Source of the DNA: Candidatus Omnitrophota bacterium
GTDB taxonomy: Bacteria; Omnitrophota; Gorgyraeia; Zapsychrales; JANLHA01
Length of the DNA: 32,000 bases
Direction: 5' to 3'
NCBI GenBank assembly: GCA_963662715.1
Contig: OY759724.1
Span: 2,730,001 to 2,762,000 of the forward strand
The notes beneath the pieces were generated by a model. It worked only from the letters and a program-made list of their open reading frames with translations. It was not told where the DNA came from and searched no databases. Made by a program: the position numbers and the translations under genes. Below, one piece after another: positions 1 through 18,670 of the stretch (the stretch's first letter is position 1; every line of letters starts with the position of its first letter).

Positions 1-349
1 TTTTTGCAAGCTATTCAAAAGAATGTACGGGAAATCCCCCGGGATATTCCGGCTGAATCCTCCCAATAGAATCTCTTCTCCCAAGGTAAAACAGAGACTG
101 TTTCCGGCCAGATCCTGATCAATTGCTTTTCCTGCAGGGTTTTTTCCTTACTTTAGACCTGTTTTCCTTCACTAAGATTATGAATAATGGCGTTTATTCG
201 AGAGAAATGAGTCAATAGCAAATATTTCCCATAAATGAGCAAATGCGTCCATTGAATAAATTTTAAAAGATGATATCCTTTTTTGGGTTATTAAATAGGA
301 CTTCAGACAATATGAAAAATTCCAAAAGCACATATAAACCAAACGCTGG

Positions 350-398
350 CCCGGACGTCACATGCTCCGTCGTGATGCCGGGTTTTTATTTTGTTTTT
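350..398 (+). terminator. Possible intrinsic terminator or attenuator hairpin plus U-tract in the long non-coding region upstream of the acidic-protein gene
   Basis: cccgg(350-354)/ccggg(378-382) and tcac(358-361)/gtga(372-375) can pair around a 10-nt loop, followed by tttttattttgttttt (383-398). The stem is interrupted and short. No supported gene lies between about 70 and 350. Confidence 0.3.
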
Positions 399-542
399 AA
401 AGCTGAAAGGAGGTGAGTTAAAACCGCTGTATTTTTTTAGGAGAAATTTTTAACGATTAATTAAGAAGTAAATTGAAGGAAAAAGGGTTAATGAAGGACA
501 GCATCGAGTTCTTCGCCCTCTATTGTCAAAGTGAGGAATGAA

Positions 543-2879
543 ATGAAAAAATTATTAATTTGGATTTTAGCAATAGCTTTTGCAGCATATCCGGTGGCCG
601 GTTATGCCGAAAGCATCGCTCTTTCTGATTCAGAAATGGATGAGATTGCAGCGGGTGAATGGGTGGTTCTTGCTGAAGGCGAAACTGTTGAAGATGTTTT
701 TTTCAGCCAGAACGAACTCCAGTCCACTGACGGTTCCCTGAATGAAGTGTCAGGTTTGAGCGTTGTAAACAGTGTTGACAGTGCGGTTGCCGTGCAGGCT
801 AACGTCGGCAATTCCGAAGATTTGGCGGAAGTTGAAGCCAATCAGGCCAACGAAGCCAACGTGCTCAACATGAATCCTTCGGTTGACAACTCAACTTCGA
901 ACACGGTCACCAACATCACTGAGCAGGATCAAGTGAATGCCTGGTCCAAAGAGACATCGACAACGGTCACTTTCTCTCATGAAGATGAAAACAATACCCA
1001 GATTTACGACAATGAGCAGTCATCTTCAGCCAACAGCTCTTCCGAATCCACATCAGCGACTTTAGATGCATCCGCTTCCGGATCTGCCTCATCTCAGGAA
1101 GAGCAGTCTGGTTCAACAACAGACTCAACTCTAAACGAAAATCATACAGCCAACACAGATAACACGGCTTTCCAGTATGACTATTCGGATGACACAACTT
1201 TTGATCTGGATGCTCAAGAGCAAGATTCATCTGCTTCTACGGCTGACACTCAAGAAGAAGAGTCCACATCGGCCAGTTTAGATGTGCAGGCCGATTATTC
1301 TGACAGTGCTGCTGAACAGTCAGAAGAGTCCACATCAGCGAGTTTAGATACACAAGCTGATTATGCTAACAGTTCTGCTGAACAATCAGAAGAGTCCACA
1401 TCAGCCGGTTTAGACGTGCAGGCCGATTATTCTGACAGTGCTGCTGAACAATCAGAAGAATCCACATCAGCTAGCTTGGATACTCAATCCGAATATTCTG
1501 ACAGTTCTGCTTTTGACGCCAACGCCAGTCAATCAGCGCAGGCTGAAAGCAGCTCCCAATCAGAAGACAGCACATCAGCAACTTTGGATGCCAACCTGTC
1601 CGCTTCCGAAAGTGCATCAGAGCAGGCTGCAGCCGAAGACGCGACATCAGCTTCCTTGAACGCTGATGCGCAGTATTCTGACAGCGCAACAACGGATTCC
1701 ACAACTGATTTTTCAGCGACTGAAGGAGAAACAACAGCAAGTTCACAAAGTGTTGACGGAACTTATAATCAGACCACAGACACTTGCGCAGATTGTGACA
1801 CCTCCACAACGACTTTTGAGGGAACAGCTGCCACAAGTGACTATTCTGACAGCAAAGATTACACCGCGGGCACAACAGCCGGTACAACGGAAAACACAGA
1901 TGCTTCTGGTTCGCTTGCCGGGACATATGATGCTTCTTCGGCAGAGTCCAGTTCAGCAGAGTCCAGCAGTGAAGCCTCAGGTGGGTTAAATGCCACTTAT
2001 GATGATTCTTCTTCTGAATCCGCGAGCGAAGCTTCTTCTTCAGATGCTTCAGGATCAGTTGCTGCGTCTAATGACACAACAGCATCAGGTTCTTTGAATG
2101 CCGCTTATGATGATTCAGCTTCTTCATCTTCTTCAGAAGACACAACAGCGTCAGGTTCTTTGAATGCTTCCTACGATGATTCAGCTTCTTCTGCTGCTTC
2201 AGAAGACACGACAGCGTCCAATTCTTTGAACGCCGCCTACGATGATTCAGCTTCTTCATCTTCTTCAGAAGACACAACAGCATCAGGTTCTTTGAATGCT
2301 TCCTATGATGATTCTTCTTCCGCATCTACTTCCGAAGCCGAATCATCTGATTCTTCATCAAGCTTGGTTGTCGGTTACACAGATGCTGATTCAGAATCTG
2401 TTGCTGCTTCTCATGATGTTGCTGCATCCACAGATAATATCAACACCACAGACCATGCTGATGAACACAGCTCATCATCATCAAACAGTTTCGAAGCTGA
2501 AGGCGCTTTATCTACATCTTTTGATCATGAAGAAGAGCAGGCCTCCGAATCAGCAGAAGCCCGCAACAATGATGAATTCAAAGATGAATACGAAAAGACG
2601 GAAGTGTCTTTTGAGACAAAAGATACTGAAGCAACAACTAATGATGCTTCTCAGGTTCTCACCAACATCACTGAAACGAAAAACACAGATCGCAAGAACA
2701 AGAGTGAAAAGAATGTGTTGATCATTTCCGGTTCATCACAGTCCGGAGTCAGCTCGTTGAGCACAGTGAATGCTGTTGGTTCAGCTGTTGCCGTTCAGTC
2801 CAACGTTATTAATGCCACAGGCAGTTTGACTGGTTCTATCAACCAATCAAATATTGCGAATGTGACAAACGGTCTTTAA
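543..2879 (+). CDS. Secreted hyper-acidic Ser/Thr/Asp/Glu-rich repeat protein, candidate major fibre subunit (FapC-like role). That it is a real CDS is far better supported than its function.
   Basis: ORF 531..2879. The ATG at 543 is preceded by GAGGA. Signal peptide MKKLLIWILAIAFAAYPVAGYA. LSDSEMDEIAAG motif directly after the signal peptide. Near-duplicate motifs LSVVNSVDSAVAVQANVGNS (N-terminal) and LSTVNAVGSAVAVQSNVINA (C-terminal). About 15 acidic 22-aa repeat units. A strong terminator follows the stop. Confidence 0.8.
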   Translation: MKKLLIWILAIAFAAYPVAGYAESIALSDSEMDEIAAGEWVVLAEGETVEDVFFSQNELQSTDGSLNEVSGLSVVNSVDSAVAVQANVGNSEDLAEVEANQANEANVLNMNPSVDNSTSNTVTNITEQDQVNAWSKETSTTVTFSHEDENNTQIYDNEQSSSANSSSESTSATLDASASGSASSQEEQSGSTTDSTLNENHTANTDNTAFQYDYSDDTTFDLDAQEQDSSASTADTQEEESTSASLDVQADYSDSAAEQSEESTSASLDTQADYANSSAEQSEESTSAGLDVQADYSDSAAEQSEESTSASLDTQSEYSDSSAFDANASQSAQAESSSQSEDSTSATLDANLSASESASEQAAAEDATSASLNADAQYSDSATTDSTTDFSATEGETTASSQSVDGTYNQTTDTCADCDTSTTTFEGTAATSDYSDSKDYTAGTTAGTTENTDASGSLAGTYDASSAESSSAESSSEASGGLNATYDDSSSESASEASSSDASGSVAASNDTTASGSLNAAYDDSASSSSSEDTTASGSLNASYDDSASSAASEDTTASNSLNAAYDDSASSSSSEDTTASGSLNASYDDSSSASTSEAESSDSSSSLVVGYTDADSESVAASHDVAASTDNINTTDHADEHSSSSSNSFEAEGALSTSFDHEEEQASESAEARNNDEFKDEYEKTEVSFETKDTEATTNDASQVLTNITETKNTDRKNKSEKNVLIISGSSQSGVSSLSTVNAVGSAVAVQSNVINATGSLTGSINQSNIANVTNGL
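1257..1520 (+). repeat. Four in-frame tandem 66-nt units (22 aa, EESTSASLD[VT]QADYSDSAAEQS type) inside the acidic-protein CDS
   Basis: Units start at 1257, 1323, 1389 and 1455 (exact 66-nt spacing). Units 1 and 3 are nearly identical, and units 2 and 4 resemble each other. More degenerate copies flank them (roughly 1040-1700). Confidence 0.9.
2073..2336 (+). repeat. Four in-frame tandem 66-nt units (22 aa, DTTASGSLNA[AS]YDDSASSSSSE type) inside the acidic-protein CDS
   Basis: Units start at 2073, 2139, 2205 and 2271 (exact 66-nt spacing). They alternate in type: 1 resembles 3 and 2 resembles 4. Degenerate copies lie upstream from about 1897. Confidence 0.9.
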
Positions 2880-2890
2880 TAAGTAATAAA

Positions 2891-2928
2891 AGGGTTGGGG
2901 GGAGGCATCTCCCCTCAACCCTGATTTT
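2891..2928 (+). terminator. Strong Rho-independent terminator immediately after the acidic-protein gene
   Basis: agggttggggggag (2891-2904) pairs with ctcccctcaaccct (2909-2922) as a 14-bp GC-rich stem with one G-U wobble and a gcat loop. It is followed by gatttt. Confidence 0.75.
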
Positions 2929-2961
2929 AAATGATGGTTTTTAAAAAGGAGATGGTCTGCG

Positions 2962-3417
2962 ATGTCTAGAAAGATAGGGTTTCTACTATTAAGTGTAGTT
3001 TTTCTGAATATGATTATCAACCCTGTGTTTGCAGATGGAAACGCAGTCGTCCTGTCTGATGAAGAGTTGGATCAAGTATATGCGCAGGGATTTAATTTTA
3101 ATTTTGATGAGTTTCTGGGAAATCTGGACAGCATTCTTTCTTCTCCTGACCTAAAAGTTGATTTAGATTTAGCCAAGGGTGGAACCGTGACTTTTACCGG
3201 TGATTCCGGAGTAGAGCAGCAGATATTTGCTACAGAAACCGGTGATATCAATTATATCAATTTGCAAGATTATGCCCAGCAATTTGCCAATAGTCTGATC
3301 AATGTGAATGCCGCAGGAAGCAATGTCCTGGTCGGGTTAAATTTGACCGTCCTCGTCAATTCGGTTGTGAACGGGGACATCAAAAGTTATAATTTCAATA
3401 ACAACAGTTCCAGGTAA
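2962..3417 (+). CDS. Small secreted protein sharing leader-like and N/V/A-rich motifs with the acidic protein (candidate minor subunit or nucleator)
   Basis: AAGGAG lies upstream of the ATG. Signal peptide MSRKIGFLLLSVVFLNMIINPVFA. LSDEELDQVYAQG follows directly after it. C-terminal ANSLINVNAAGSNVLVGLNLTVLVNS and an N-rich tail. Confidence 0.7.
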   Translation: MSRKIGFLLLSVVFLNMIINPVFADGNAVVLSDEELDQVYAQGFNFNFDEFLGNLDSILSSPDLKVDLDLAKGGTVTFTGDSGVEQQIFATETGDINYINLQDYAQQFANSLINVNAAGSNVLVGLNLTVLVNSVVNGDIKSYNFNNNSSR

Positions 3418-3476
3418 AGAAGCTTTTTATACATAATCATTGCGCCCTCCTTTTCTTTCATTTAATATATATCATT

Positions 3477-4160
3477 ATGAATAATAAAATTTTTATAATT
3501 TTAAGTGTTTTTTACCTTTTTGTTGCTCCCGGCCATGCGGCTAGCATTTCGGTGGGGGGCGTCAGTATAAACAAAAAGGTCAAAAATTTAAAAGAGCTTC
3601 GTCAGGAAAATGTTGTCACGCAAAGCCTTGATTATAGTTGCGGGGCCGCGGGTTTGTCGACCCTTTTGAATTATTATTTGAATGATCCTACCCCTGAAAT
3701 CGTTATCATCGATGCCCTGCTCAAAACCATCCCTTTGCAAAAAGTGCAAGCACGCCAGGGATTCTCTTTATTCGATTTAAAGAAATTCGCGGAATCCAGA
3801 GGATACCAGGTAACCGGGTATAAGATGGACTTCGAATTTTTAAAATCCATAGGCAAACCGCTTCTTGTCCCGATAAAATTCAAGAATTACCGGCATTTTG
3901 TCGTGGTTAAAGGTGTTGTCGGTGACAGGGTTTTTATCGCCGATCCGGCCGTAGGGAATATGACAATGAAAGATGAAAAGTTCAAAGCCATTTGGACCAA
4001 CGGCATCGGCTTTGTGGTTGAGCATCCGGAAGGCTCAAGGAACGAAGATTATGCTTTGCGTATTGAAAATGAAGATGTCCGTATGGCGAATTATCAATCC
4101 TTGAAGCGTCTCACCAGTCCTGCCTGGGTCCGGACAGCAATATTTACAAACGAATGGTGA
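3477..4160 (+). CDS. Periplasmic stand-alone C39-family cysteine peptidase (FapD-like role)
   Basis: Signal peptide MNNKIFIILSVFYLFVAPGHA. C39 signature Q-x5-C (QSLDYSCGAAGLSTLLNYY), His block YRHFVVVKG and FIADPAVG. There is no ABC-transporter domain. Confidence 0.75.
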   Translation: MNNKIFIILSVFYLFVAPGHAASISVGGVSINKKVKNLKELRQENVVTQSLDYSCGAAGLSTLLNYYLNDPTPEIVIIDALLKTIPLQKVQARQGFSLFDLKKFAESRGYQVTGYKMDFEFLKSIGKPLLVPIKFKNYRHFVVVKGVVGDRVFIADPAVGNMTMKDEKFKAIWTNGIGFVVEHPEGSRNEDYALRIENEDVRMANYQSLKRLTSPAWVRTAIFTNEW

Positions 4161-4166
4161 TCTTTT

Positions 4167-5627
4167 ATGCGTTTTAACCGAATATTATCAACAATATTGG
4201 TAGTGCTTTTCGTATGCTTTTTTGGGGTCTTCGTGTCCCGGTCGCGCCTTAGATATCCGGAAATTGATTTGACCGCTATTAAAAGGCAGTTAAGGGAGGA
4301 GATTAAAGACGAATTGCGCGCCGAACTGCTGCTTGAAATGGGAGATGTCATAACCCGGGAAGTTCAAAAAGAGGTTCATCTTTATCTTGCGCAGATACAC
4401 AAGCAAAAGGCTGATACAGAAAAGTATAGCCATTTGCAGCCCTCTGCTTCCTATGATGATGCTCTTGCCCGCAATTCCCTGACCCAGCAAGAGGAAAGAG
4501 AAACGATTCGGGAGGCTATCCAGCGGACGGTACGTGACGTCGTTCAGGAATACAATGCACAGCTTTCTGATGAGGAATTAGCCGCAACCGTAGCCAGCGG
4601 CGGACTTGATCCTGCGGTGACTCTTCCGGGCAGTTTGTCAAAAACCGTACAGGATGACCCTGTCCTGTTAGCGGCGGCCGAGGCATCCGCGGGGAGCCAA
4701 AAGCAGACATCCTCTTCTCAGCCGGTTCCCGTGAATTCAAAAGACGCGACAGCCGGTTCCAATTCCGGTAAAGTTGATTCTATTGAAAGGACATTGGTCC
4801 AAAAGGGAAGCATCCTCTTGCCTAAGGGGAGATTGCAGTTTGAACCCAGCCTGACCTATGCGCATTCCTCTTCCAACCGGCTATACATCGACGGCTTTAG
4901 TATCCTTCCGGTCCTTGTGGTCGGCGATATCTCTACAGAAAAAGTGCAGCGGGACGTTTTCATTAATACCTGGACATTCAAATACGGTTTAAGGCACAAC
5001 CTGCAGACAGAAGTCAGGGTTCCTGTCCGGTTTGAATATGACCGCATTACGAACACCGACAGCACAACGTTTGACCAGACGGATAATAAAGGCGGCCTGG
5101 GCGATATCCAGGTTTCTGTGAGCCGCCAGATCGGGTGGGAACACGGTCTCATCCCGGATTTGGTCGCGAATCTATCGGTGAAGTCCAATACCGGGGATGA
5201 ACCTTACAATACGGATATTGCCTTGGGAACCGGGCACTGGGCTGTCAGCGGGGCTCTGGTTGCGGCCAAGGCCAGCGATCCTGCTGTTATTTTTGGCAGT
5301 TTGAATTATACGTATAATATCCCCCGCAGCGATATCGAAAACTACGGAAAAATAGACCCGGGAGACTCGATAGGTTACAGTTTGGGAACCGCCATCGCGT
5401 TGAGTTATCAAACAGCCATCAATTTTTCATTTGATCATTCTATTACCGATAAAATGGTCAGGAACGGCCAAAAGGTCCCCGGCTCTTTCCTGAATGCCGC
5501 TAATTTCAAGACCGGTTTTAACTGGGCTTTGAATGAACGGGCTTCCGTGGATTGTTCTCTCAGCTTTGGCTTGACTCAGGATTCTCCTGATTTCACATTT
5601 GAACTCCGTTTCCCGTATAATTTCTGA
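4167..5627 (+). CDS. Outer-membrane beta-barrel protein with an N-terminal coiled-coil-like segment and low-complexity linker (FapF-like architecture)
   Basis: Starts 6 nt after the peptidase gene. N-terminal hydrophobic segment. Charged heptad-like stretch IKRQLREEIKDELRAELLLEMGD...QKEVHLYLAQIHKQK. S/Q/P-rich linker. C-terminal half has alternating hydrophobic strands, a GGLGDIQVSV motif and an aromatic terminus FELRFPYNF typical of OMP barrels. Confidence 0.65.
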   Translation: MRFNRILSTILVVLFVCFFGVFVSRSRLRYPEIDLTAIKRQLREEIKDELRAELLLEMGDVITREVQKEVHLYLAQIHKQKADTEKYSHLQPSASYDDALARNSLTQQEERETIREAIQRTVRDVVQEYNAQLSDEELAATVASGGLDPAVTLPGSLSKTVQDDPVLLAAAEASAGSQKQTSSSQPVPVNSKDATAGSNSGKVDSIERTLVQKGSILLPKGRLQFEPSLTYAHSSSNRLYIDGFSILPVLVVGDISTEKVQRDVFINTWTFKYGLRHNLQTEVRVPVRFEYDRITNTDSTTFDQTDNKGGLGDIQVSVSRQIGWEHGLIPDLVANLSVKSNTGDEPYNTDIALGTGHWAVSGALVAAKASDPAVIFGSLNYTYNIPRSDIENYGKIDPGDSIGYSLGTAIALSYQTAINFSFDHSITDKMVRNGQKVPGSFLNAANFKTGFNWALNERASVDCSLSFGLTQDSPDFTFELRFPYNF

Positions 5628-5763
5628 TCCCCTCTTGGGACATCTTCCCCTCTTATAAGATATATTGTCGTTGTGCCAGGAAAGATTATTATGATTGCCA
5701 AAAGACAAAGCCGCATGCTATGATAAAAACTCTTTTGAAATTATTTTATTTTGAAAAGTACTC

Positions 5764-6159
5764 ATGAACAGAAAGTTTTGCGCATTCTCGTTGATTCTTC
5801 TGAGCCTTGGCCTTGTATCGATCGTGAACATTGGTCAAGGGGCGGATTTAACGCGGCCTAAGGGCCAGCAGGAGAAGGAATGCCGTGTCCAGAATTGTCA
5901 CGGGCTCGAAATCCAATGCGGTTTCAGTGAACCCAAAGTGTGTACCGAGATGTATCAGTTGGGTGATTTTTGCCGCGCCTTTGCTGAATGTCGTTTTATA
6001 AAAGGTGAGTGTCAGTTTGTGAACAATGATCTTTTCCAGGGATGCAAAGACTGCGTTTTGGATTGCGAACGCAATAAAGATGAGATCAATCCGTTTATTT
6101 GTGAGGTCAAATGCCGGAAGGAATTTGAGCCGTATATTTATGGAAAACCCCTTAATTGA
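5764..6159 (+). CDS. Small secreted cysteine-rich protein, unknown function
   Basis: Signal peptide MNRKFCAFSLILLSLGLVSIVNIGQGA. 12 Cys in the roughly 100-aa mature part. I recognise no family. Confidence 0.55.
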   Translation: MNRKFCAFSLILLSLGLVSIVNIGQGADLTRPKGQQEKECRVQNCHGLEIQCGFSEPKVCTEMYQLGDFCRAFAECRFIKGECQFVNNDLFQGCKDCVLDCERNKDEINPFICEVKCRKEFEPYIYGKPLN

Positions 6160-6346
6160 ATATCTGTCTTTCGCACAACGCATACTCGTATTAACAGGGG
6201 CCGGTATTTCCACGGAAAGCGGTATCAGTGACTACCGAAGCCTTGGCGGATTATGGGATAGATTTCAGCCTGTCACCTTTCAGGAATTTTTTTCCCCTGT
6301 CAGCTATGAAAAAGAAAAAAATACTCGTCAAAGCCGTCCTTTTTGA
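6140..6346 (+). pseudogene. Truncated Sir2/CobB-type NAD-dependent deacylase: only about 53 N-terminal residues retained
   Basis: The ATG at 6140 gives MENPLIEYLSFAQRILVLTGAGISTESGISDYRSLGGLWDRFQPVTFQEFF, the sirtuin Rossmann N-terminus (GAGIS..SGI.D[FY]R). The frame then runs into unrelated sequence and stops at 6346. It overlaps the 3' end of the Cys-rich gene and the 5' end of the HAD gene. Confidence 0.6.
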
Positions 6347-6974
6347 TATGGACGGTGTCATCACAAACACCATGCCCGATCATTACCGCGCCTGGCGTTC
6401 GGTTCTGCGCGAGGAGGTCGGTATTGAAGTTTCTCACGAAGAGATATACAGACGGGAGGGGCAGAAGGGCATTGCCAGCGTGCAGGAACTTTTTGCCGAG
6501 CATAAGAAGTTTTATCTTCCGGAAACCGGAAAAGCTATCTTGCGGAAGAAAGAGGAGCTGTTTAAAAAGATTGTTAAAACGCGTTTCATTCAGGGAGCGA
6601 GACGTTTTCTTTCTTCCCTGCAGCGGCTGGGCCTTGAAATGGCGTTAGTGACAGGCACTTCGACGCATGAGATGCATCGTATCCTTCCGGACGCGATCTA
6701 CCGGCGTTTTTCTGTCGTGGTGACAGGGAACCATGTCACGGAAGGCAAGCCGTCCCCGGAACCCTATGCCCTGGCTTTAAAAAAACTGGGAATGAAACCC
6801 CGGGATGCTGTTGTTATTGAGAATGCCCCTTTTGGCGTCCGTTCGGCCAAATCCGCGGGGATAAAATGTTTCGCAATTGCAACTTCTCTTCCGGCGTGTT
6901 ATCTTAATGAGGCTGACGAGATATTTTCTTCGTTCCGCGACCTGAATCAAAAAATCGAATTTGCCTTGGTTTAG
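6306..6974 (+). CDS. HAD-superfamily hydrolase, beta-phosphoglucomutase-like subfamily
   Basis: MKKKKILVKAVLFDMDGVITNT (DxDG motif I), VTGTS, KPSPEPY, ENAPFGVRSAKSAG. The start is placed at 6306 because the 6228 extension is only the alternate frame of the Sir2 remnant. Confidence 0.8.
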   Translation: MKKKKILVKAVLFDMDGVITNTMPDHYRAWRSVLREEVGIEVSHEEIYRREGQKGIASVQELFAEHKKFYLPETGKAILRKKEELFKKIVKTRFIQGARRFLSSLQRLGLEMALVTGTSTHEMHRILPDAIYRRFSVVVTGNHVTEGKPSPEPYALALKKLGMKPRDAVVIENAPFGVRSAKSAGIKCFAIATSLPACYLNEADEIFSSFRDLNQKIEFALV

Positions 6975-7075
6975 GAACCGGGCGAATCAAAGCACCATTC
7001 GTTTCGTGTCCGTATAGGTCCCCTAACCCGTGTTTGTCCGGGGATGTTATTTTTTAAATCATCCGGCATTTTTTT

Positions 7076-7939
7076 ATGAAGATCAAAAAAATACTGCTTT
7101 TGTACAAAAAGAGCACTTATAAACATTATTGTCAGAGGTATTCTGCCGATTCCCGGCAGATGAAGACGAATTCCCGTTTTATCCGCAGATTTAAGAGGAC
7201 TCATGATGAACATTATAAAAATTTGTCTGTCATCCAGCATGTTTTAAAAACGAAGAAGTTCAACTACGATTCTGTCGCGCGCGGGTCACCCTGCGATTAT
7301 GCGTTATATGACTTGATTATCACTGTCGGGGGAGACGGCACTTTCCTGGAAGGGGCCCGTTTCGCTGCTCAGCAGCCTGTCCTGGGGGTGAATTCTGACC
7401 CGCAATGGAGTGTGGGGCGTTTTTGTTCGTCGACCACGCAGTCTTTCCCCCGTATTCTGGAGAAAGTTTGTGCAGGTCAGGCGAAAATATTATTGTTGAA
7501 CCGGATGAAGGTGAGCCGGAACGGTTCGCAGGAATCGGTTTTGGCCTTAAATGATATCCTTATCTGCCATAAGAATCCGGCGGCGATGAGCCGTTATATC
7601 ATAAAAGTCTCCGGCAAACAAGAAGAACAGAGCAGTTCCGGAATATGGGTTGCAACCGCTGCCGGCTCGACCGGCGCCATATATTCCGCGGGAGGGGATA
7701 GGCTGCCTTTGACGAGCCGGATGCTGCAGTTCCGGGTTCGGGAGCTATACCGGGGATGCGGCAAAACACATTGTTTTCATGCCGGATTGATTAACCCAAG
7801 ACAATCCTTGCAGGTGACTTCCCTGATGAAAGAAGGCATGATTTATATCGATGGGTCTCATGTAAAACAGGATTTCAGTTTCGGTGCACATATAAAAATC
7901 CGGTCTGCCAGTGATGCCTTAAGGTTTATCACGGTCTGA
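7076..7939 (+). CDS. nadK: NAD(+) kinase
   Basis: ITVGGDGTFLEGAR, LNDILI and AAGSTGAIYSAGG motifs typical of the NAD kinase family. Confidence 0.8.
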   Translation: MKIKKILLLYKKSTYKHYCQRYSADSRQMKTNSRFIRRFKRTHDEHYKNLSVIQHVLKTKKFNYDSVARGSPCDYALYDLIITVGGDGTFLEGARFAAQQPVLGVNSDPQWSVGRFCSSTTQSFPRILEKVCAGQAKILLLNRMKVSRNGSQESVLALNDILICHKNPAAMSRYIIKVSGKQEEQSSSGIWVATAAGSTGAIYSAGGDRLPLTSRMLQFRVRELYRGCGKTHCFHAGLINPRQSLQVTSLMKEGMIYIDGSHVKQDFSFGAHIKIRSASDALRFITV

Positions 7940-8027: not shown

Positions 8028-9077
8028 ATGAATGATTCCGTGTTTAGAGAAAAACTGCTTTTGTGGTATAAAAAAAATGCCAGAAAATTGCCCTGGAGGC
8101 GTACGCGAGATCCTTATAAGATATGGATCTCTGAAGTCATGCTCCAGCAAACTACGGTCAAAGCCGTTATCCCTTACTATCAGAGTTGGATTAAGCAATT
8201 TCCGGATATCCATTCTGTCTCCCGGGCTTCTTCTGAAACGGTCCTTAAAGCCTGGCAGGGACTGGGGTATTACCAGAGAGTGCGGAATATTCATAAATCA
8301 GCCAGGATGATTTGCGAGCGCTACAACGGAAGAATCCCGGCGGATAAGGAGATTTTGCGCCGGCTTCCGGGGTTTGGGCCTTATACGACAGGAGCCGTGC
8401 TCAGCATGGCTTTTGATCAGCCCGAGGTCATTATTGATGCCAACATTCGCAGAGTATTGATGCGGGTTCTTGATATCACAGGTTATGCTGACTCAAAACA
8501 TGATCCCCGGATTTTAAAAGTATTAAAAAAGATTCTTCCGTTAAAGGCGTCCGGCTGTTTTAATCAGGCTTTAATGGAGCTCGGGGCCGTAATATGCCGC
8601 AGTTCCTGTCCTTTATGTCTGCCGTGCCCGGTCAGCAGGGAATGCAGGGCTTACCGGAAAGGGACCCAGGAAATAATCCCTCAGCCGAAAACCAAGACTT
8701 TGATCCGGCAGCATGCCGTTGTCGCTCTAATCAAACATCGGAAAAAATATTTTATCCAGAAACGTCCTTCGAAGGGGCTGTTGGCGGATTTATGGGAATT
8801 CCCCGGAGGCAAGATCGAACCAGGGGAAACAAGCCGGCAGGCCTTAGTCAGGGAGGTCCGGGAAGAACTGAAAGTTGAAATTGAGAAGGCGCGGCATATG
8901 ATGAACCTTACGCACTATTACACATGTTACAAGGTCCATTTGTCGGTATGGCTGTGTTCAGCCTGTCCGCTCCCCGGCGAAGACCGGACGCATCGTTGGG
9001 TCAGGCAAAAAGAACTTTCGGATTATGCGATGCCTTCCGGAAGCGCAAAAATAGTCGAAAGGATAAAAGTTTTGTAA
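8028..9077 (+). CDS. mutY: A/G-specific adenine DNA glycosylase MutY with a MutT-like C-terminal domain
   Basis: LLLWYKKNARKLPWRRTRDPYKIWISEVMLQQTTV, the Cys cluster C-x6-C-x2-C-x5-C (CRSSCPLCLPCPVSREC), and C-terminal LWEFPGGKIEPGETSRQALVREVREEL. Confidence 0.9.
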   Translation: MNDSVFREKLLLWYKKNARKLPWRRTRDPYKIWISEVMLQQTTVKAVIPYYQSWIKQFPDIHSVSRASSETVLKAWQGLGYYQRVRNIHKSARMICERYNGRIPADKEILRRLPGFGPYTTGAVLSMAFDQPEVIIDANIRRVLMRVLDITGYADSKHDPRILKVLKKILPLKASGCFNQALMELGAVICRSSCPLCLPCPVSRECRAYRKGTQEIIPQPKTKTLIRQHAVVALIKHRKKYFIQKRPSKGLLADLWEFPGGKIEPGETSRQALVREVREELKVEIEKARHMMNLTHYYTCYKVHLSVWLCSACPLPGEDRTHRWVRQKELSDYAMPSGSAKIVERIKVL

Positions 9078-9175
9078 AATTGTGGTAAAGAGATTAATCT
9101 TATAATATCATTGCATTAAATATCTAATAAAAGATATAATCGTATAAATATATTGTTATAATTAAGGAGAATCAT

Positions 9176-9961
9176 GTGCGAATATTGGTTACGAATGACG
9201 ATGGGATTTATGCCGAGGGATTATATGCTTTGGTTTCGGAAATAAAAAAAATCGGCACGGTTACCGTTGTCGCTCCCGACAGCGAACGCAGTTCCGTCGG
9301 GCACGGGATTACGTTGGCTCATCCGATTTGGTACAAGAAAGTCGTCCGTAAAGGACGTTTTTTTGGCTATGGCATCAGCGGCACACCGGCGGATTGCGTC
9401 AAGTTCGCTATTAAAATCCTGCTGAAAGACAAGCCGGACCTGATCATTTCCGGCATAAATCTTGGCAGTAATGATGGTTGCAGCGTATTTTATTCCGGGA
9501 CGGTCGCCGGTGCGCGCGAAGGGGCTTTGAACGGCATTCCTTCTCTTGCGGTCTCTCTGGATACGTTTGTCAGGCCTGATTATAAACTGGCGGCTAAAAT
9601 CGCCCGGCTGGTTTCAAAAATGATTTCTCAGGAAGGGCTGCCTCAAGGAACATTTTTGAATATTAATGTGCCGAATCAGCCCTTGCGGCATATCAGGGGG
9701 ATCAAACTTGCTCAGCAGTGCACGCGTCCCATTGAGGGGATATTCCAAAAACGGCAGGATCCCCAGCTCCGGACATATTACTGGATGAGCGGGAAAGCCC
9801 CTCGCACGAAAGGGTCTCAAAATAATGATACAAAAGCCCTAAAAGAAAAATACGTCACGATTTCACCTGTTCATTGTGATTTGACGGATTATCATTTTCT
9901 TCAGGAGATGAAAAACTGGAATGTCGACGGGATATCAAAAAGGTTGTTGAAGAAATCATAA
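9176..9961 (+). CDS. surE: 5'/3'-nucleotidase SurE
   Basis: GTG start 6 nt after AAGGAG. MRILVTNDDGIYAEGL N-terminus and GINLGSN, SGTVAGAREG motifs. Confidence 0.9.
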   Translation: MRILVTNDDGIYAEGLYALVSEIKKIGTVTVVAPDSERSSVGHGITLAHPIWYKKVVRKGRFFGYGISGTPADCVKFAIKILLKDKPDLIISGINLGSNDGCSVFYSGTVAGAREGALNGIPSLAVSLDTFVRPDYKLAAKIARLVSKMISQEGLPQGTFLNINVPNQPLRHIRGIKLAQQCTRPIEGIFQKRQDPQLRTYYWMSGKAPRTKGSQNNDTKALKEKYVTISPVHCDLTDYHFLQEMKNWNVDGISKRLLKKS

Positions 9962-9989: not shown

Positions 9990-11057
9990 ATGTTGCCTAA
10001 GAATCAGACCGCGCATACGCGTATTCTTATCGTTGATGATCAGAAACTGCATGGATTGTACTTGAAGAAAGTTTTGGCAGAAGAGGGGTTCGAAAATGTC
10101 GAATATTCTAATGATCCCCTTAAAGTCCTTCAGCTTGTCCGTGATTTTCACCCGGAGATTATCGTGCTGGACCTTTTTATGCCGCACCTGGACGGTTTTC
10201 AGATCATGGAGCAGTTAGCGGAATTCCGGAAAGATCATTATTTGCCTGTTTTAGCTTTGTCCTCTGAGAAAAGTTCTGATGTGCGGCTGCGGGCCCTACA
10301 GTCGGGCGCGACGGATTTCCTGAATAAACCCTACGAAAACATGGAAATCATTTTCCGTATCAGAAACATGATCGAAATGCGTACTCTTCATATGGAAGTT
10401 AAAAACCAGAATAAGATCCTGGAAAGTAAAGTGCAGGATAGAACCAAGGAACTGAGAGATACGCAGTTAGACATTATCCGCCGCTTGGCGCAGGCGGCGG
10501 AATTCCGTGATAGTGACACGGGGATGCATATTATCCGTATGAGTCAGTATTGTCAGAAATTCGGTGTCGCCATGGGGATGAGCCTGCCCGAATGCGATTT
10601 GTTGCTGCACGCGAGTCCTCTGCATGACATAGGAAAGATCGGGATCCCCGATGCGATCCTGCTTAAGCCCGGCCGCTTGACGGAAGAGGAATATGAAATA
10701 ATGAAAACGCATACGGTCATTGGAGCAAAACTGCTTGCCGGCAGCAATTCTCCCGTTATGAAAATGGCGCAAATCATTGCGATGACTCATCATGAAAAAT
10801 GGGACGGCTCCGGCTATCCTAAACAGTTGAAAGGGGATGAAATCCCGCCCGAGGGACAGATCGTCAGTATTTGCGATGTTTTTGATGCCTTGACATCCGA
10901 TCGCCCCTACAAACAAGCCTGGACCAGTGATGTTGCCGTTGAAGAAATTGTCCGCATGAAAAGCAAGCATTTTTCTCCGATTATTGTTGATCGCTTCCTG
11001 GAAGTGCTTCCGCTTATTGAAGATATCCGGCAAAAGAACTCGGATGGAACAACTTAA
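9990..11057 (+). CDS. Response regulator with HD-GYP phosphodiesterase output domain (RpfG-like)
   Basis: Receiver: ILIVDDQ...VLDLFMPHLDG...LNKPY. HD-GYP: LHDIGKIGIPDAILLKPGRLTEEEYEIMKTH and HHEKWDGSGYP. Confidence 0.85.
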   Translation: MLPKNQTAHTRILIVDDQKLHGLYLKKVLAEEGFENVEYSNDPLKVLQLVRDFHPEIIVLDLFMPHLDGFQIMEQLAEFRKDHYLPVLALSSEKSSDVRLRALQSGATDFLNKPYENMEIIFRIRNMIEMRTLHMEVKNQNKILESKVQDRTKELRDTQLDIIRRLAQAAEFRDSDTGMHIIRMSQYCQKFGVAMGMSLPECDLLLHASPLHDIGKIGIPDAILLKPGRLTEEEYEIMKTHTVIGAKLLAGSNSPVMKMAQIIAMTHHEKWDGSGYPKQLKGDEIPPEGQIVSICDVFDALTSDRPYKQAWTSDVAVEEIVRMKSKHFSPIIVDRFLEVLPLIEDIRQKNSDGTT

Positions 11058-11273
11058 ATTTATAAGATCTGTGCTTTGTTTTCAGGAAAAGTGATGTTAT
11101 AGTGAGGGATGAGTTTTTCGTATTGGGCCCTGTGAACAGACAAGGGGGACTCTTTAAGACTGTGAATCCTGTTTGCGCAGGGCGGGAAAAGGCCTCGCAG
11201 GAGATGTCCGGCGAGAACTTTTGTCAGGATTATGTGCGTCGAAGAGCCATGTGATTTATAAAACGGAGACAGC

Positions 11274-13559: not shown

Positions 13560-13591
13560 CAACCTTATTTTTAAAATAAAGGAATAGGCGT

Positions 13592-14002
13592 GTGGAAGAA
13601 TTAAATCATGGTAAAATACTCGTCGTTGACGATTCAGACCTTGAGCGGGAGCTCCTCATTGAAGTTTTAAAAGGCGCGGGAGTGCAGAATGCTTTTCTGC
13701 AGGCCAAGACCGGAGAAGAGGCCATTGAGATATTAGGGACACATTTTAAGGAGGTCGGTCTTATTCTTCTTGACTGGCAGATGCCAAAAATGTCGGGGAT
13801 GGAATTTATGGAAGCGGTTGTGAAGGTGCCGCAGGTCGCCAGTAAAGCTATTATCATGGTTACTGCTTCCGGGACGGATGAAAACAAGAAGAAGGCCTGG
13901 GCCGTCAATCCTAATCTTGTGGGGTACGTTGTCAAGCCGTATACGCCGGAATCTTTACTGGATGTCATTTATCCATTTGTTCAACTCAAGTCTTCGGATT
14001 AA
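13592..14002 (+). CDS. Single-domain CheY-like response regulator
   Basis: GTG start after AAGGAA. ILVVDDSDLERE, LILLDWQMPKMSG, MVTAS, VVKPY. Confidence 0.8.
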   Translation: MEELNHGKILVVDDSDLERELLIEVLKGAGVQNAFLQAKTGEEAIEILGTHFKEVGLILLDWQMPKMSGMEFMEAVVKVPQVASKAIIMVTASGTDENKKKAWAVNPNLVGYVVKPYTPESLLDVIYPFVQLKSSD

Positions 14003-17214: not shown

Positions 17215-18669
17215 ATGTTAGATTTTCGTCCTAAATTAATGCTGGATCAGCCTGCGCTTATTATCTTAAGCGGGAAAAAGGCTTATGAGCAGAAAAACTG
17301 GCTGAATCAGTTCCCGGCCGAGTTAAGGCCGTCTTTGTCGGCTCTGCAACAAAGTCAAAAATTCAAAGCGGAAAAAGGAGAAATATTCCCGCTTATTCTC
17401 AAGAACAAAGTTGTGCTTGCCGTGGGGCTCGGAGAACAGGGGCCGGGATATTTCACCGCATTAAGGTCGGTCACCCGAAAGGCCCTTTTATCGGAATTTG
17501 TCAGAAATATTAAGGAAGTTGAACTCTACCCGGCGGTAAAACAGGATGCCGAAATCGCGGCTGTTATTGAGGGCGTTTTAATCGGCGGGTACAACTGGGA
17601 TAAATACCGGACATTCAAAAAGAACGAATTTCCTGCTCATCAGCGGCAGGTTTTTTTGGTGGCTAAGGAGAAAAAGGCGTTCCTTGATGCCGTGATAACA
17701 TGCCGGGGCGTTAACCTGACGCGGGATCTGGTGAATGATAATGCTGATACCATTCATGCCGAATCTTTTGAAGAGGCGGTTATTTCTGTTATTAAAGGGT
17801 GTAAGCAGGCGAGCCTGACCGTTCTGAACGAGGAAGATTTAAAGGAAAAAGGCCTGAATCTTCATCTTGCGGTTAATAAAGGAAGCCAGTATCCTCCCAA
17901 ACTTATTATCGTGAAGTACCGGGGGGCTGCCAAGGAAGCCAAAACAACAGCTCTGGTGGGAAAGGGGATTACCTTTGATGTCGGAGGCCTTAATTTAAAA
18001 CCCTCCGGCCATCTGGAAACCATGCGTTGTGATATGAGCGGCGCTGCGGCGGTCTTGGGAACCCTGCACAATGTTATTCATCTCAGACTTAAAAAGAATC
18101 TTATTTTTGCTTTTGGCCTGGCTGAAAACGCCATCGGCCCTTTTTCCTATAAACCCGGAGATATTGTTAAAAGCTACAGCGGCAAGACGGTTGAAGTGGC
18201 CAACACGGATGCCGAGGGCCGCCTGGTGCTGGCCGACGCTATTTCTTATCTTGTCAAAAATTACAAACCCTCCCGGATCATTGATATCGCAACCCTGACC
18301 GGGGCCTGCGTCATCGCCCTCGGCCACGATTACAGCGGTTTGGTGTCGTCAAATAATCTTTTGGCCGAGAAGCTGCTTAAGGCCTCCGAGGTTACCGATG
18401 ACCGGTTGTGGCGCCTGCCATCGTATCCGGAACTTAAGGATTCCGTGGAATCGCAGGTCGCGGATATCCGGAACCTGGGATTCCCGCGCGGCGCAGCCGG
18501 AACCATCACGGCCGCGGAGTTTTTGCGGCAGTTTACCGGCAACACGGCGTGGGCCCATATTGACATTGCCGGGACAGCCTTTCGGGAAGGGAAAGAAAGA
18601 TTTTATTATTCCTCCGGCGCATCCGGTGCCGGGGTCCGGTTATTAACCGAATTTATCAAGAAGAATTAA
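17215..18669 (+). CDS. pepA: Leucyl aminopeptidase (M17)
   Basis: VGKGITFDVGGLNLKP and NTDAEGRLVLADA signatures. Confidence 0.9.
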   Translation: MLDFRPKLMLDQPALIILSGKKAYEQKNWLNQFPAELRPSLSALQQSQKFKAEKGEIFPLILKNKVVLAVGLGEQGPGYFTALRSVTRKALLSEFVRNIKEVELYPAVKQDAEIAAVIEGVLIGGYNWDKYRTFKKNEFPAHQRQVFLVAKEKKAFLDAVITCRGVNLTRDLVNDNADTIHAESFEEAVISVIKGCKQASLTVLNEEDLKEKGLNLHLAVNKGSQYPPKLIIVKYRGAAKEAKTTALVGKGITFDVGGLNLKPSGHLETMRCDMSGAAAVLGTLHNVIHLRLKKNLIFAFGLAENAIGPFSYKPGDIVKSYSGKTVEVANTDAEGRLVLADAISYLVKNYKPSRIIDIATLTGACVIALGHDYSGLVSSNNLLAEKLLKASEVTDDRLWRLPSYPELKDSVESQVADIRNLGFPRGAAGTITAAEFLRQFTGNTAWAHIDIAGTAFREGKERFYYSSGASGAGVRLLTEFIKKN

Positions 18670-18670
18670 C

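Follow-up and report, generated by a model that had tools for sequence, protein, structure and literature searches.

We analysed a 32,000-nucleotide window, the whole stretch of DNA under study, which carries near its start a four-gene cassette on the forward strand. The first two genes encode predicted secreted proteins, a large one with a long acidic region (ORF1) and a small one (ORF2), while the two that follow encode a C39 cysteine peptidase (ORF3) and a FapF-like outer-membrane channel (ORF4), relatives of the protease and channel that Pseudomonas uses to export its biofilm amyloid. A preliminary description had pointed to near-duplicate, uncharged segments rich in Asn, Val, Ala and Gln at both ends of ORF1 and again in ORF2. 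The features of the locus are collected in the table.

Features of the cassette, in window coordinates
Coordinates	Strand	Feature	Description
543-2879	+	ORF1, 'type A' cargo protein	778 aa from the ATG at 543; the alternative GTG start at 531 overlaps the ribosome-binding site GAGGA; signal peptide, leader, N module, acidic repeat linker, C module
543-608	+	Sec-type signal peptide of ORF1	MKKLLIWILAIAFAAYPVAGYA; read from the sequence
621-656	+	Double-glycine-type leader of ORF1	L(-12) S D S E(-8) M(-7) D E I(-4) A A(-2) G(-1), followed by EWVVL
711-881	+	N-terminal copy of the Asn-ladder module	NELQ...VSGLSVVNSVDSAVAVQANV...NQANEANVLNMNPS; contains the segment 747-815
882-2711	+	Acidic Ser/Thr/Asp/Glu linker	About 14 degenerate 22-aa repeats
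1256-1511	+	Tandem array in the linker	Recent, 66-bp unit
2073-2337	+	Tandem array in the linker	Recent, 66-bp unit
1785-1796	+	CxxC (C-A-D-C)	Only cysteines of mature ORF1, in the middle of the linker
2712-2876	+	C-terminal copy of the module	NVLIISGSSQSGVSSLSTVNAVGSAVAVQSNVINATGSLTGSINQSNIANVTNGL; ends at the stop codon; contains the segment 2748-2876
2891-2922	+	GC-rich hairpin	14-bp stem, 12 nt after the ORF1 stop, followed by a T-rich stretch
2962-3417	+	ORF2, 'type B' cargo protein	151 aa; signal peptide, leader, conserved GFNFNFDEFLG, one module copy
2962-3033	+	Signal peptide of ORF2	
3052-3090	+	Leader of ORF2	LSDEELDQVYAQ(G)
3250-3393	+	Module copy of ORF2	NYINLQDYAQQFANSLINVNAAGSNVLVGLNLTVLVNSVVNGDIKSYN; contains the segment 3286-3378
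3477-4160	+	ORF3, stand-alone C39 cysteine peptidase	227 aa, with its own signal peptide
4167-5627	+	ORF4, FapF-like outer-membrane channel	N-terminal hydrophobic segment, helical (coiled-coil-like) periplasmic region, linker, barrel
4563-4604	+	Leader-like motif in the periplasmic region of ORF4	LSDEELAATVASGG
4794-5627	+	Barrel of ORF4	Residues 210-486

To evaluate if the three segments were true copies of one another, we translated them and compared them with each other and with related proteins. All three translated exactly as had been described. The N- and C-terminal segments of ORF1 shared 16 of 23 residues, and a local alignment of the two ends scored 98, against 43±7 for shuffled sequences (z=7.6), while the C-terminus of ORF1 against ORF2 alone gave only z=3. 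Because this last value is low and the composition is biased, a chance resemblance between low-complexity Asn/Ser/Val-rich stretches had to be considered. When orthologues were added, however, all three segment classes aligned without gaps over about 55 columns, with Asn invariant at four positions and Ser at one, and with Gln and two Val nearly invariant. To test the relationship independently, we built an HMM only from C-terminal modules of other organisms' proteins, which scored the C-terminus of ORF1 at 46.6 bits, its N-terminus at 17.0 bits (best of 3000 composition-matched shuffles, 12.2), ORF2 at 13.4 bits (best of 3000 shuffles, 9.5) and the acidic middle at 0.9 bits. All three segments thus exceeded every shuffle, and together with the library scan described below this refutes a chance resemblance. 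The observation in the preliminary description is therefore confirmed, with two small corrections: the conserved unit is longer than had been marked, and the second half of the N copy does carry acidic residues. The last 55 residues of ORF1, in contrast, contain only N, Q, S, T, G, A, V, I and L, with no charged, aromatic or Pro residues.

To determine how widespread the module is, we searched protein collections with it. Word-indexed protein searches were nearly blind to the family, returning 6, 3 and 5 hits, and a scan of a genome collection with the ORF2 family found only two MAGs, with conflicting taxon labels. Only a full HMMER scan showed its size, finding 436 protein clusters that carry the module, 175 of them at E≤1e-10, with 1 to 18 copies per protein. 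Named members are Omnitrophota 'hypothetical proteins'. Pfam and NCBIfam scans of 20 family members found no family, apart from weak matches on the leader (DUF6160, Lactococcin), and the module profile against PDB sequences gave only chance hits to leucine-rich repeats. Searches of the literature on FapD substrates, DUF6160, the Fil system, C39 peptidases with COG4313, amyloid in Omnitrophota and Gorgyraea found no description of this cargo family.

ORF1 matched the family profile, and orthologues of 795-823 aa sit in the same cassette in four of the numbered relative loci (L001, L003, L004 and L007). The acidic region between its two copies proved to be a dispensable linker of variable length, being absent in a 108-aa single-module relative (P0008), about 35 aa in another relative (P0033), about 130 aa in typical relatives and about 600 aa here, and its length and copy number also differed between orthologues. 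The mature protein has 142 D+E, 11 K+R and 255 S+T in 740 residues. The cysteine pair of the linker is conserved as TDTC[AE]DC in L001, L003 and L004, and Cx2-3C is also present in linkers of several other type A proteins.

Both cargo proteins carry a Sec signal peptide followed directly by a double-glycine-type leader (LSDSEMDEIAAG|EW), a shared motif that the preliminary description had missed and that is more directly interpretable than the module. The N-terminus of ORF1, including its signal peptide, recurs in orthologues and in about 30 type A relatives. The leader is near-invariant and sits directly after the signal peptide in 155 of 164 proteins; a logo over these 155 showed L-12 in 90%, D-10 in 92%, E/Q-8 in 80%, L/M-7 in 99%, V/I-4 in 98%, A-2 in 97% and G-1 in 70%, with a median start at residue 29, and Ala-Gly is invariant in the type A alignment. 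This matches the recognition rule of C39 peptidases, L(-12), E(-8), L(-7), a hydrophobic residue at -4 and small residues at -2/-1 (PMC6363468). ORF2 meets the rule only in part, since it has Ala-Gln at the aligned -2/-1 positions, followed by Gly, so that its cleavage site is uncertain. The equivalent of the leader-like motif in ORF4 is present in the FapF-like proteins of L001, L003, L004, L005, L007, L009 and L010 and in Ca. Gorgyraea (L017).

We next examined the two downstream genes. ORF3 matched Pfam Peptidase_C39 (3e-23) and the NCBIfam models FilB (3e-41; 141.6 bits, cut-off 475) and FapD (4e-32; 111 bits, cut-off 330), both below the curated cut-offs. In an alignment with PDB 6mpz (2e-9), Gln49, Cys55, His140 and Asp156 coincided with the catalytic residues of LahT (numbering from PMC6363468). 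Residues 210-486 of ORF4 aligned to residues 23-334 of the FapF chain over the whole barrel (PDB 5o65/5o67, E=5e-32), and ORF4 also matched NCBIfam FapF (5e-45; 154 bits, cut-off 700), NCBIfam FilC (69.6 bits, cut-off 630) and Pfam Phenol_MetA_deg (5.5e-12). Both proteins are thus homologues, not equivalogs, of the Fap components.

To evaluate if this arrangement was conserved, we compared nine independent loci that reach past the cargo genes. All nine showed the same order of two-module (or multi-module) protein(s), one-module type B protein and C39 peptidase, and the FapF-like gene followed in all eight that extend that far, namely the group of the window, L005, L009, L010, L014, L015 (cut off), L017 and L020, while L008 ends after the C39 gene. 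A type B gene follows the type A gene(s) in every locus examined. In Ca. Gorgyraea, exopolysaccharide export genes lie next to the cassette, a matrix context. A strong hairpin with different sequence occurs at the same position after the type A gene in L001, L003, L004, L005, L007, L008, L009, L010 and L014; it is a probable partial terminator or mRNA-stabilizing element that would set a high ORF1:ORF2 ratio, a function that is inferred, and it fits a major-subunit/minor-subunit arrangement. Rfam found no riboswitch or known RNA in positions 1-6300, only sub-threshold hits on the hairpin, and no sigma-54 promoter lies upstream of ORF1.

Among the closest known systems is the Pseudomonas Fap functional-amyloid system (fapABCDEF), which also uses Sec export, a periplasmic stand-alone C39 peptidase (FapD) and a FapF barrel, and whose N/Q/A/V/G-rich imperfect repeats are separated by variable linkers, with a major subunit that contains a CxxC and a minor subunit. 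No FapC or FapB homologue was detectable here, however: ORF1, ORF2 and 10 relatives gave no hit to the NCBIfam FapC or FapB models even at E≤10, while the FapC UK4 control scored 231 bits, and hhalign of the module against FapC gave a probability of 0.05. The cassette has four genes, not six, and ORF1 and ORF2 gave no NCBIfam hit in a library not confirmed to hold FapA and FapE models, although ORF2 could be a functional analogue of FapE. The major protein has two modules, not three repeats, its linker is a huge acidic repeat array, and the cargo carries a canonical double-glycine-type leader, which Fap proteins are stated to lack (PMC5557850).

In the uncharacterized Acinetobacter Fil 'putative pilus system', a cargo with a signal peptide and a leader-like motif (FilA: MDDAALSAATGQ|DG) is followed by a C39 peptidase (FilB) and a FapF-like barrel (FilC), in that gene order, and the same logic holds in a Croceicoccus plasmid operon. 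FilB is the best NCBIfam hit of ORF3, but ORF1 gave no FilA hit and only a weak DUF6160 match of its signal peptide plus leader (residues 5-42, E=0.006, 17 bits, cut-off 27), whereas a genuine FilA scored 333 bits. FilA has no Asn-ladder module, as it gave no hit with the family HMM, and no homologues of FilD-F follow ORF4, the next genes being unrelated. Curli also has a major subunit and a minor nucleator that share a beta-strand repeat with conserved Asn/Gln/Ser, with terminal repeats of CsgA that drive polymerization and extracellular assembly after secretion of unfolded subunits. Its channel family is different, it has no C39 step, and the repeats here are separated by a long linker. We found no Curlin_rpt or other Pfam hit at E≤1 for ORF1, ORF2 or eight relatives, including an 18-module protein; the first five ORFs of the cassette region matched only C39 and FapF-type models, and the ten ORFs scanned further downstream, up to 18669, are housekeeping or signalling genes.

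The leader follows the pattern of double-glycine leaders processed by the C39 domains of PCAT/AMS transporters, such as those of LahT, ComA and CvaB substrates, although P2-P1 is Ala-Gly rather than Gly-Gly/Ala/Ser. It resembles Nif11 or lactococcin-type leaders, with a weak Lactococcin leader hit for one relative (P0066), and the best solved relative of ORF3 is a double-glycine protease, which raised the possibility that ORF1 and ORF2 are bacteriocin- or RiPP-like precursors with toxic or signalling N/Q-rich parts, whose leaders would be removed during export, as with PCAT transporters. We consider this very unlikely, since the leader lies behind a Sec signal peptide and would act in the periplasm, ORF3 has its own signal peptide and no ABC or transmembrane domains, with matches to the PCAT models covering only the peptidase domain, no modification enzymes or immunity genes were found in the cassette, the cargo is 150-1300 aa of repetitive protein, and the export partner is an outer-membrane FapF homologue.

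To assess the fold of the module, we generated AlphaFold models. ORF2 with a 6-sequence alignment was uninformative (pLDDT 41.6), while a fused N+C construct of ORF1 with full-length relatives gave an all-beta model with strand/hairpin content in both copies, at low confidence (pLDDT 61.0, pTM 0.45). Foldseek against PDB gave no significant match, and the two FapC fibril entries at the top (E about 1, TM 0.13) are not counted as evidence. The spacing of the invariant Asn residues (19, 11, 16) is not a simple solenoid period. These results leave room for a non-polymerizing surface or matrix protein, in which the copies pack only within one chain as a small beta-sandwich or solenoid. ORF1 would then be a monomeric, highly anionic adhesin, or a cation-binding or hydration layer, that merely uses the C39/FapF-type route, and ORF2 a separate small secreted or anchoring protein. 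Relatives with 6-18 modules in one chain could fold on their own, there is no detectable homology to known amyloid repeats, and the Fil relatives are not annotated as amyloid. This reading is the strongest of the alternatives, but we regard it as doubtful, because some single-module members leave only about 70 residues after the predicted leader cleavage (P0008, 108 aa as translated) and are unlikely to fold alone, a module shared by a major and a minor protein of one operon, plus the conserved hairpin, is typical of polymer systems, and FapF-type channels are known only for unfolded, self-assembling cargo (PMC5557850).

The module might instead be mainly a targeting or docking signal for the channel or the cell surface, acting as a C-terminal secretion signal or as a strand that inserts into or binds the barrel, not as a fibre core. 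In type A proteins one copy always ends exactly at the C-terminus with a conserved N-x-A-T-V-V-N-G-(L/F) tail, and module proteins are strictly linked to the channel gene. This possibility appears unlikely, given that a second copy sits near the N-terminus, giants carry up to 18 internal copies, the module of type B proteins is followed by a further conserved tail, and the leader already supplies a recognition element.

Taken together, our results suggest that ORF1 and ORF2 are the cargo of a four-gene secretion and assembly cassette, a third branch, beside Fap and Fil, of Sec/C39/FapF-type export, a reading to which we assign a probability of about 0.5. In this view, the Sec system exports both proteins to the periplasm, where each exposes its second leader, LSDxE(L/M)Dx(I/V)xAG; ORF3 would bind it and most likely cleave after Ala-Gly, giving a mature ORF1 that starts EWVVL, and ORF4 would pass the unfolded cargo across the outer membrane and, through the motif in its periplasmic arm, could recruit the peptidase or be cut by it. 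Outside the cell, the ~55-aa modules with their fixed Asn/Gln positions would stack on one another, as do the imperfect repeats of CsgA or of FapC, which are joined by flexible linkers (PMC12822426). The N and C copies of ORF1 would come together with the acidic linker looping out as a strongly anionic brush, and subunits would add end to end into a fibre or sheet. ORF2, made in smaller amounts because of the hairpin and with a more hydrophobic module, would serve as a minor subunit, a nucleator or cell anchor analogous to FapB/FapE or CsgB/CsgF. The module homology, the conserved gene order, the leader motif and the kinship of ORF3 and ORF4 rest on the sequence analysis, whereas cleavage is inferred from the motif, the catalytic residues and gene linkage, export is inferred by homology to FapF, and everything from module stacking to fibre or amyloid formation and the role of ORF2 is inference, without an experimental datum for any family member. 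Evidence for a functional amyloid, defined operationally by cross-beta fibres, ThT or Congo-red binding, resistance to SDS and need for formic acid, is only indirect, namely the beta-prone composition, the Asn/Gln ladder pattern, the low-confidence all-beta model and the export machinery. The spacing of the invariant Asn residues and the acidic second half of the N copy speak against this reading, and multi-module giants could be monomeric beta-repeat proteins rather than polymers. A 2025 review reports that amyloid-propensity predictors perform inconsistently on bacterial functional amyloids (PMC12822426). The interpretation in the preliminary description, that the segments form an amyloid or assembly core, is therefore only partly supported: homologous beta-prone modules, a variable acidic linker between them and a position directly upstream of relatives of FapD and FapF make a secreted assembly subunit plausible and the segments good candidates for a new extracellular fibre, but no detectable homology to curli or Fap repeats was found, and head-to-tail stacking and a nucleator role for ORF2 remain inferred.

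A bolder and more tentative reading is that this cassette is the founding example of an undescribed branch of FapF/C39-dependent extracellular fibre systems, widespread in Omnitrophota and other uncultured bacteria, whose Asn-ladder modules polymerize into amyloid-like fibres decorated with variable, here hyper-acidic, loops, and whose export uses two consecutive leaders, the second removed by the FapD-like peptidase at a channel that carries a copy of the leader to recruit the peptidase or to be gated by it. If so, it identifies by sequence what FapD-type peptidases recognize. Rouse et al. (2017, 2018) showed that the catalytic cysteine of FapD is needed for secretion but could not name its substrate, noted that Fap proteins lack a canonical C39 site, and saw fapD-fapF pairs in five further phyla without known cargo; here the cargo of such a pair carries a textbook double-glycine-type leader just after the Sec signal, and the channel carries one too, which gives a precise cleavage or recruitment hypothesis. 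The two-module plus free-linker design tolerates 0 to 600 residues of insert, making it a natural display scaffold that could be of interest for engineering curli-like materials, and the abundance of acidic and Ser/Thr residues in ORF1 suggests cation binding or hydration of the cell surface. The unannotated family of at least 436 clusters would add candidate extracellular fibre and matrix proteins, mostly from uncultured lineages such as Omnitrophota, to the two well-studied Gram-negative amyloid systems, curli and Fap.

To establish whether the three Asn/Val/Ala/Gln-rich segments pointed out in the preliminary description are genuine copies of one element, we first translated them and compared them with one another. 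All three segments translated to the peptides originally quoted, the first two lying near the two ends of ORF1, whose true start is probably an ATG located behind a GAGGA ribosome-binding site, and the third lying in the next reading frame, ORF2 (151 aa). The two ORF1 segments share 16 of 23 residues, and a local alignment of the two ends of ORF1 scored 98, compared with 43±7 for shuffled sequences (z=7.6), while the comparison of the ORF1 C-terminus with ORF2 alone was marginal (z=3). Adding orthologues settled the matter, since the N copy, the C copy and the ORF2 copy aligned without gaps over about 55 columns, with four Asn and one Ser invariant and one Gln and two Val nearly invariant. To test this independently, we built an HMM only from the C-terminal modules of proteins of other organisms. 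This profile scored the ORF1 C-terminus at 46.6 bits, the ORF1 N-terminus at 17.0 bits (best of 3000 composition-matched shuffles 12.2), ORF2 at 13.4 bits (best of 3000 composition-matched shuffles 9.5) and the acidic middle of ORF1 at 0.9 bits, the shuffles having been run for the N-terminus and ORF2. A chance resemblance between the segments is effectively excluded. The last 55 residues of ORF1 contain only N, Q, S, T, G, A, V, I and L, while the mature protein has 142 D+E, 11 K+R and 255 S+T in 740 residues. The original observation of three related segments therefore stands, although the conserved unit is longer than the stretches first marked. The coordinates of these and the other features are collected in the table.

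Table. Positions of the features described in the text, in the window and in other loci
Sequence	Feature	Coordinates	Remarks
Window	3′ end of an AraC/PocR-type regulator gene	2-118	+ strand, frame 2; cut by the window edge
Window	ORF1	531-2879	782 codons; probable start at ATG 543
Window	N copy of the module in ORF1	711-881	Segment first marked: 747-815
Window	First 66-bp tandem array in the linker	1256-1511	About 4 copies
Window	CxxC (CADC) in the linker	1785-1796	Only cysteines of ORF1
Window	Second 66-bp tandem array in the linker	2073-2337	About 4 copies
Window	C copy of the module in ORF1	2712-2876	Segment first marked: 2748-2876
Window	GC-rich hairpin	2891-2922	14-bp
Window	ORF2	2962-3417	
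Window	Module copy in ORF2	3250-3393	Segment first marked: 3286-3378
Window	ORF3, C39 peptidase	3477-4160	
Window	ORF4, FapF homologue	4167-5627	
Window	Leader-like motif in ORF4	4563-4604	ORF4 residues 133-146
Window	Secreted protein with 13 cysteines	5764-6159	131 aa
Window	Response regulator with an HD-GYP-type domain, hybrid histidine kinase and further receiver	9990-14002	
L017 (Ca. Gorgyraea atricola)	HD_5-domain gene	8863-9684	
L017 (Ca. Gorgyraea atricola)	Split FapF-like gene	18450-19930	ORFs of 300 and 187 aa
L018 (Acinetobacter baumannii)	FilA, FilB and FilC genes	4646-7874	
L019 (Croceicoccus marinus plasmid pCME4A9I)	Operon with C39 and FapF-like genes	4543-7714	

To determine the context in which the segments occur, we scanned the neighbouring reading frames against Pfam, NCBIfam and solved structures. 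ORF3 is a stand-alone C39 cysteine peptidase with its own signal peptide (Pfam, 3e-23), for which the best NCBIfam models were FilB (3e-41) and FapD (4e-32) and the best solved relative was the double-glycine protease LahT (6mpz); Gln49, Cys55, His140 and Asp156 align with the LahT catalytic residues (residue roles from PMC6363468). ORF4 is a homologue of FapF, the outer-membrane channel of the Pseudomonas functional-amyloid system, its residues 210-486 aligning to the whole crystallised barrel at E=5e-32, and a helical periplasmic region precedes the barrel. In contrast, ORF1 and ORF2 matched nothing in Pfam or NCBIfam at E≤1 in these scans. The ORFs scanned in the rest of the window are housekeeping and signalling genes. 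Directly after the cassette lies a gene for a secreted protein with no family match, which is conserved at this position in L003 and L004, two loci closely related to the window, but is replaced by other genes in the close relative L001. Upstream, the same AraC/PocR-type regulator precedes the cassette in L001, L003 and L004, making it a candidate regulator of the operon, and it is followed in the window by about 420 nt of untranslated leader with no Rfam match.

To evaluate how widely the module occurs, we searched protein collections with a profile of leader plus module. While word-indexed searches found almost nothing, a full HMMER scan of 1.84 billion representatives returned 436 clusters at E≤1e-3 and 175 at E≤1e-10. 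The family presents four architectures. Type A proteins are about 300 aa long, with one module near the N-terminus, one exactly at the C-terminus and an acidic, Ser/Thr-rich linker between them, ORF1 being an expanded case. Type B proteins, such as ORF2, carry one module near the C-terminus, after a conserved GxNxxF(D/N) box and a variable linker. Type C proteins, such as the family members P0062 and P0066, are single-module proteins of about 130 aa, and the giants carry 6-18 tandem modules, as in P0010 (1283 aa, 18 matched stretches). A role of the module purely as a targeting signal fits badly with the N-terminal copies and the 18-copy giants, and we consider it unlikely. None of these proteins, not even the one with 18 modules, hit any Pfam or NCBIfam family in the scans, and no solved structure matched the module profile. 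Where sources give names, the proteins are called "hypothetical protein", and the named organisms are Candidatus Gorgyraea atricola and other Omnitrophota. Two MAGs (L001/L006 versus L007), close genomic relatives of the window, share the cassette and its flanking genes with it, yet they are labelled Planctomycetales and Omnitrophota. At least one label is probably wrong; we suspect that the Planctomycetales label is a binning label.

To determine whether the module proteins are consistently linked to the putative export genes, we retrieved loci from metagenomes and genomes and scanned their ORFs with the family HMM and with ORF3 and ORF4. Every locus with enough sequence showed the same order, namely type A or giant gene(s), then a type B gene, then the C39 peptidase gene and then the FapF-like gene. 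The loci examined were the window and its close relatives L001-L004 and L007, the more distant L005, L008 (where the contig ends after the C39 gene), L009 and L010 (each with two type A genes), L014, L015 (where the type B gene is cut by the contig end), L017 from Ca. Gorgyraea and L020. L017 encodes giants of 1283 and 1000 aa, a 130-aa type B-like protein, the C39 peptidase and a split FapF-like gene, followed by exopolysaccharide export genes, while L020 encodes a 1151-aa giant, a 134-aa type B protein, the C39 peptidase and a 337-aa FapF-like barrel. The module proteins are therefore the cargo genes of a conserved cassette. In the Ca. Gorgyraea atricola MAG, the N-terminal part of the split FapF-like gene carries a Pur_ac_phosph_N (fibronectin-like) domain in place of a coiled coil, and the split is either a frameshift or assembly error, or a real pseudogene. 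In addition, an HD_5-domain gene lies directly upstream of the giant module proteins in Ca. Gorgyraea, with Wza/Wzz-type polysaccharide export genes downstream, and in the window a response regulator with an HD-GYP-type domain, a hybrid histidine kinase and a further receiver lie a few kb downstream of the cassette, which may link the system to c-di-GMP and matrix regulation.

Both cargo proteins also share a second motif, which the preliminary description did not report. In ORF1 and ORF2 the Sec signal peptide is followed at once by LSDSEMDEIAAG|EW and LSDEELDQVYAQ|GF, respectively, the leader-bearing peptide of ORF1 reading ESIALSDSEMDEIAAGEWVV. Over 155 family proteins the motif starts at median residue 29, with L at position −12 (90%), S/T at −11 (85%), D at −10 (92%), E/Q at −8 (80%), L/M at −7 (99%), D at −6 (83%), V/I at −4 (98%), A at −2 (97%) and G at −1 (70%), and Ala-Gly is invariant in type A proteins. 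This is the recognition rule of C39 peptidases for double-glycine leaders, in which Leu-12, Glu-8, Leu-7 and Val-4 sit in a hydrophobic groove and small residues sit at the scissile site (PMC6363468). Two weak library hits point the same way, as ORF1 residues 5-42 match DUF6160 (E=0.006) and the leader of a relative matches the Lactococcin leader (E=0.085), although a reading of ORF1 and ORF2 as bacteriocins is effectively excluded. DUF6160 turned out to be FilA of the Acinetobacter "putative pilus system", which has a signal peptide followed by MDDAALSAATGQ|DG and whose gene is followed in A. baumannii (L018) by those for FilB (C39) and FilC (FapF-like). The Croceicoccus marinus plasmid operon (L019) shows the same pattern, with small proteins carrying VSEDALQATAG and LSEEVLARQRGG on either side of its C39 gene, ahead of a FapF-like transporter.

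The FapF-like proteins of this family also carry the motif, as an LSDxEL...xGG leader-like sequence in the periplasmic region between the helical segment and the barrel. In the window it reads LSDEELAATVASGG, and it is conserved in eight other loci (L001, L003, L004, L005, L007, L009, L010 and L017, the last from Ca. Gorgyraea). It could be a peptidase docking or cleavage site, in agreement with the published suspicion that FapD cuts the FapF linker. Rouse et al. showed that the catalytic cysteine of FapD is required for secretion, and stated that Fap proteins lack canonical C39 sites and that the target was unclear, with FapE and the FapF linker as suspects (PMC5557850). They later noted fapD-fapF pairs in five further phyla (PMC6173800), and a 2025 review still says that FapD "is thought to" process FapE and the periplasmic region of FapF (PMC12822426).

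We next examined the acidic middle of ORF1. The linker consists of about 14 degenerate 22-aa units of the form x-E-S-T-S-A-S-L-D-x-x-A-D-Y-S-D-S-A-x-x-x-S, and includes two young 66-bp tandem arrays whose copies are 81-88% identical and encode 22-aa acidic units. Copy number differs between orthologues, which range from 795 to 823 aa, so the linker is expanding and contracting quickly. Ordinary type A proteins have a linker of about 130 aa with related LDYD/ETLD elements, and a Cx2-3C is present in several of them. The CxxC of ORF1, in the middle of the linker, is conserved in orthologues and recalls the conserved CxxC of FapC. The linker is therefore tolerant of length change and is evolving fast, as expected for an exposed loop and not for a core.

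To evaluate the fold of the module, we predicted structures with AlphaFold. The model of ORF2, based on 6 sequences, gave a pLDDT of 41.6 and was uninformative. Joining the N and C parts of ORF1, with 31 full-length type A relatives in the alignment, gave an all-beta model in which each module has a short strand followed by a long hairpin (strands 57-67/73-85 and 131-141/147-159), although at a mean pLDDT of 61 and a pTM of 0.45. A Foldseek search against PDB found nothing significant; the two best rows were FapC fibril structures, but at E of about 1 and TM of 0.13, and we do not count them as evidence. An hhalign comparison of the module with FapC gave a probability of 0.05, and a FapC control hit the NCBIfam FapC and FapB models while the family did not. 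The main alternative to a fibre, that the modules fold only within one chain and that the proteins are monomeric surface proteins, is less likely in our view, but it is the strongest of the rival readings.

A GC-rich hairpin lies 12 nt after the ORF1 stop codon and is followed by T-rich sequence; Rfam gave only sub-threshold generic hits for it (FinP, a miRNA). A strong hairpin at the same place, with different sequence, follows the type A gene in all nine other loci tested (L001, L003-L005, L007-L010 and L014). We infer that it probably acts in partial termination (as an attenuator) or in transcript stabilisation, making the type A protein the abundant product and setting subunit stoichiometry.

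Taken together, sequence and homology establish the Sec signals on the cargo proteins and ORF3, the N-terminal hydrophobic segment on ORF4, a C39 peptidase with an intact active site, a FapF-type barrel, the conserved double-glycine-type leader on both cargo proteins and its counterpart on the channel, the conserved shared module and the strict gene linkage. What these components do is inferred from them. In the most likely mechanism, ORF3 would bind the leader after Sec export and cleave after Ala-Gly, and ORF4 would pass the unfolded cargo to the outside. The modules would then stack, N copy on C copy within a chain and onto the next subunit, as the imperfect repeats of FapC and CsgA do, with the acidic linker projecting as an anionic brush and ORF2 acting as the minor subunit, a nucleator or anchor. 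We assign a probability of about 0.5 to this reading as a whole, the polymerising fibre core being its more tentative part. The earlier proposal of an assembly core in a curli/Fap-like setting is thus supported only in part, since the homology of the three copies, the loop-like linker and the Fap-type context hold, while amyloid formation itself remains a hypothesis.

On this evidence the system would work like Fap and like the uncharacterised Fil system, but it is a member of neither, as ORF3 and ORF4 fall far below the curated cut-offs of both and the cargo is unrelated to FapB, FapC and FilA. We found no description of the cargo family, or of the leader on FapF-type cargo, in the searchable literature. 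Given that a leader also follows the signal peptide of FilA and that similar motifs occur in the small proteins of the Croceicoccus operon, a leader behind the Sec signal may be general for the cargo of FapD/FapF-type pairs.
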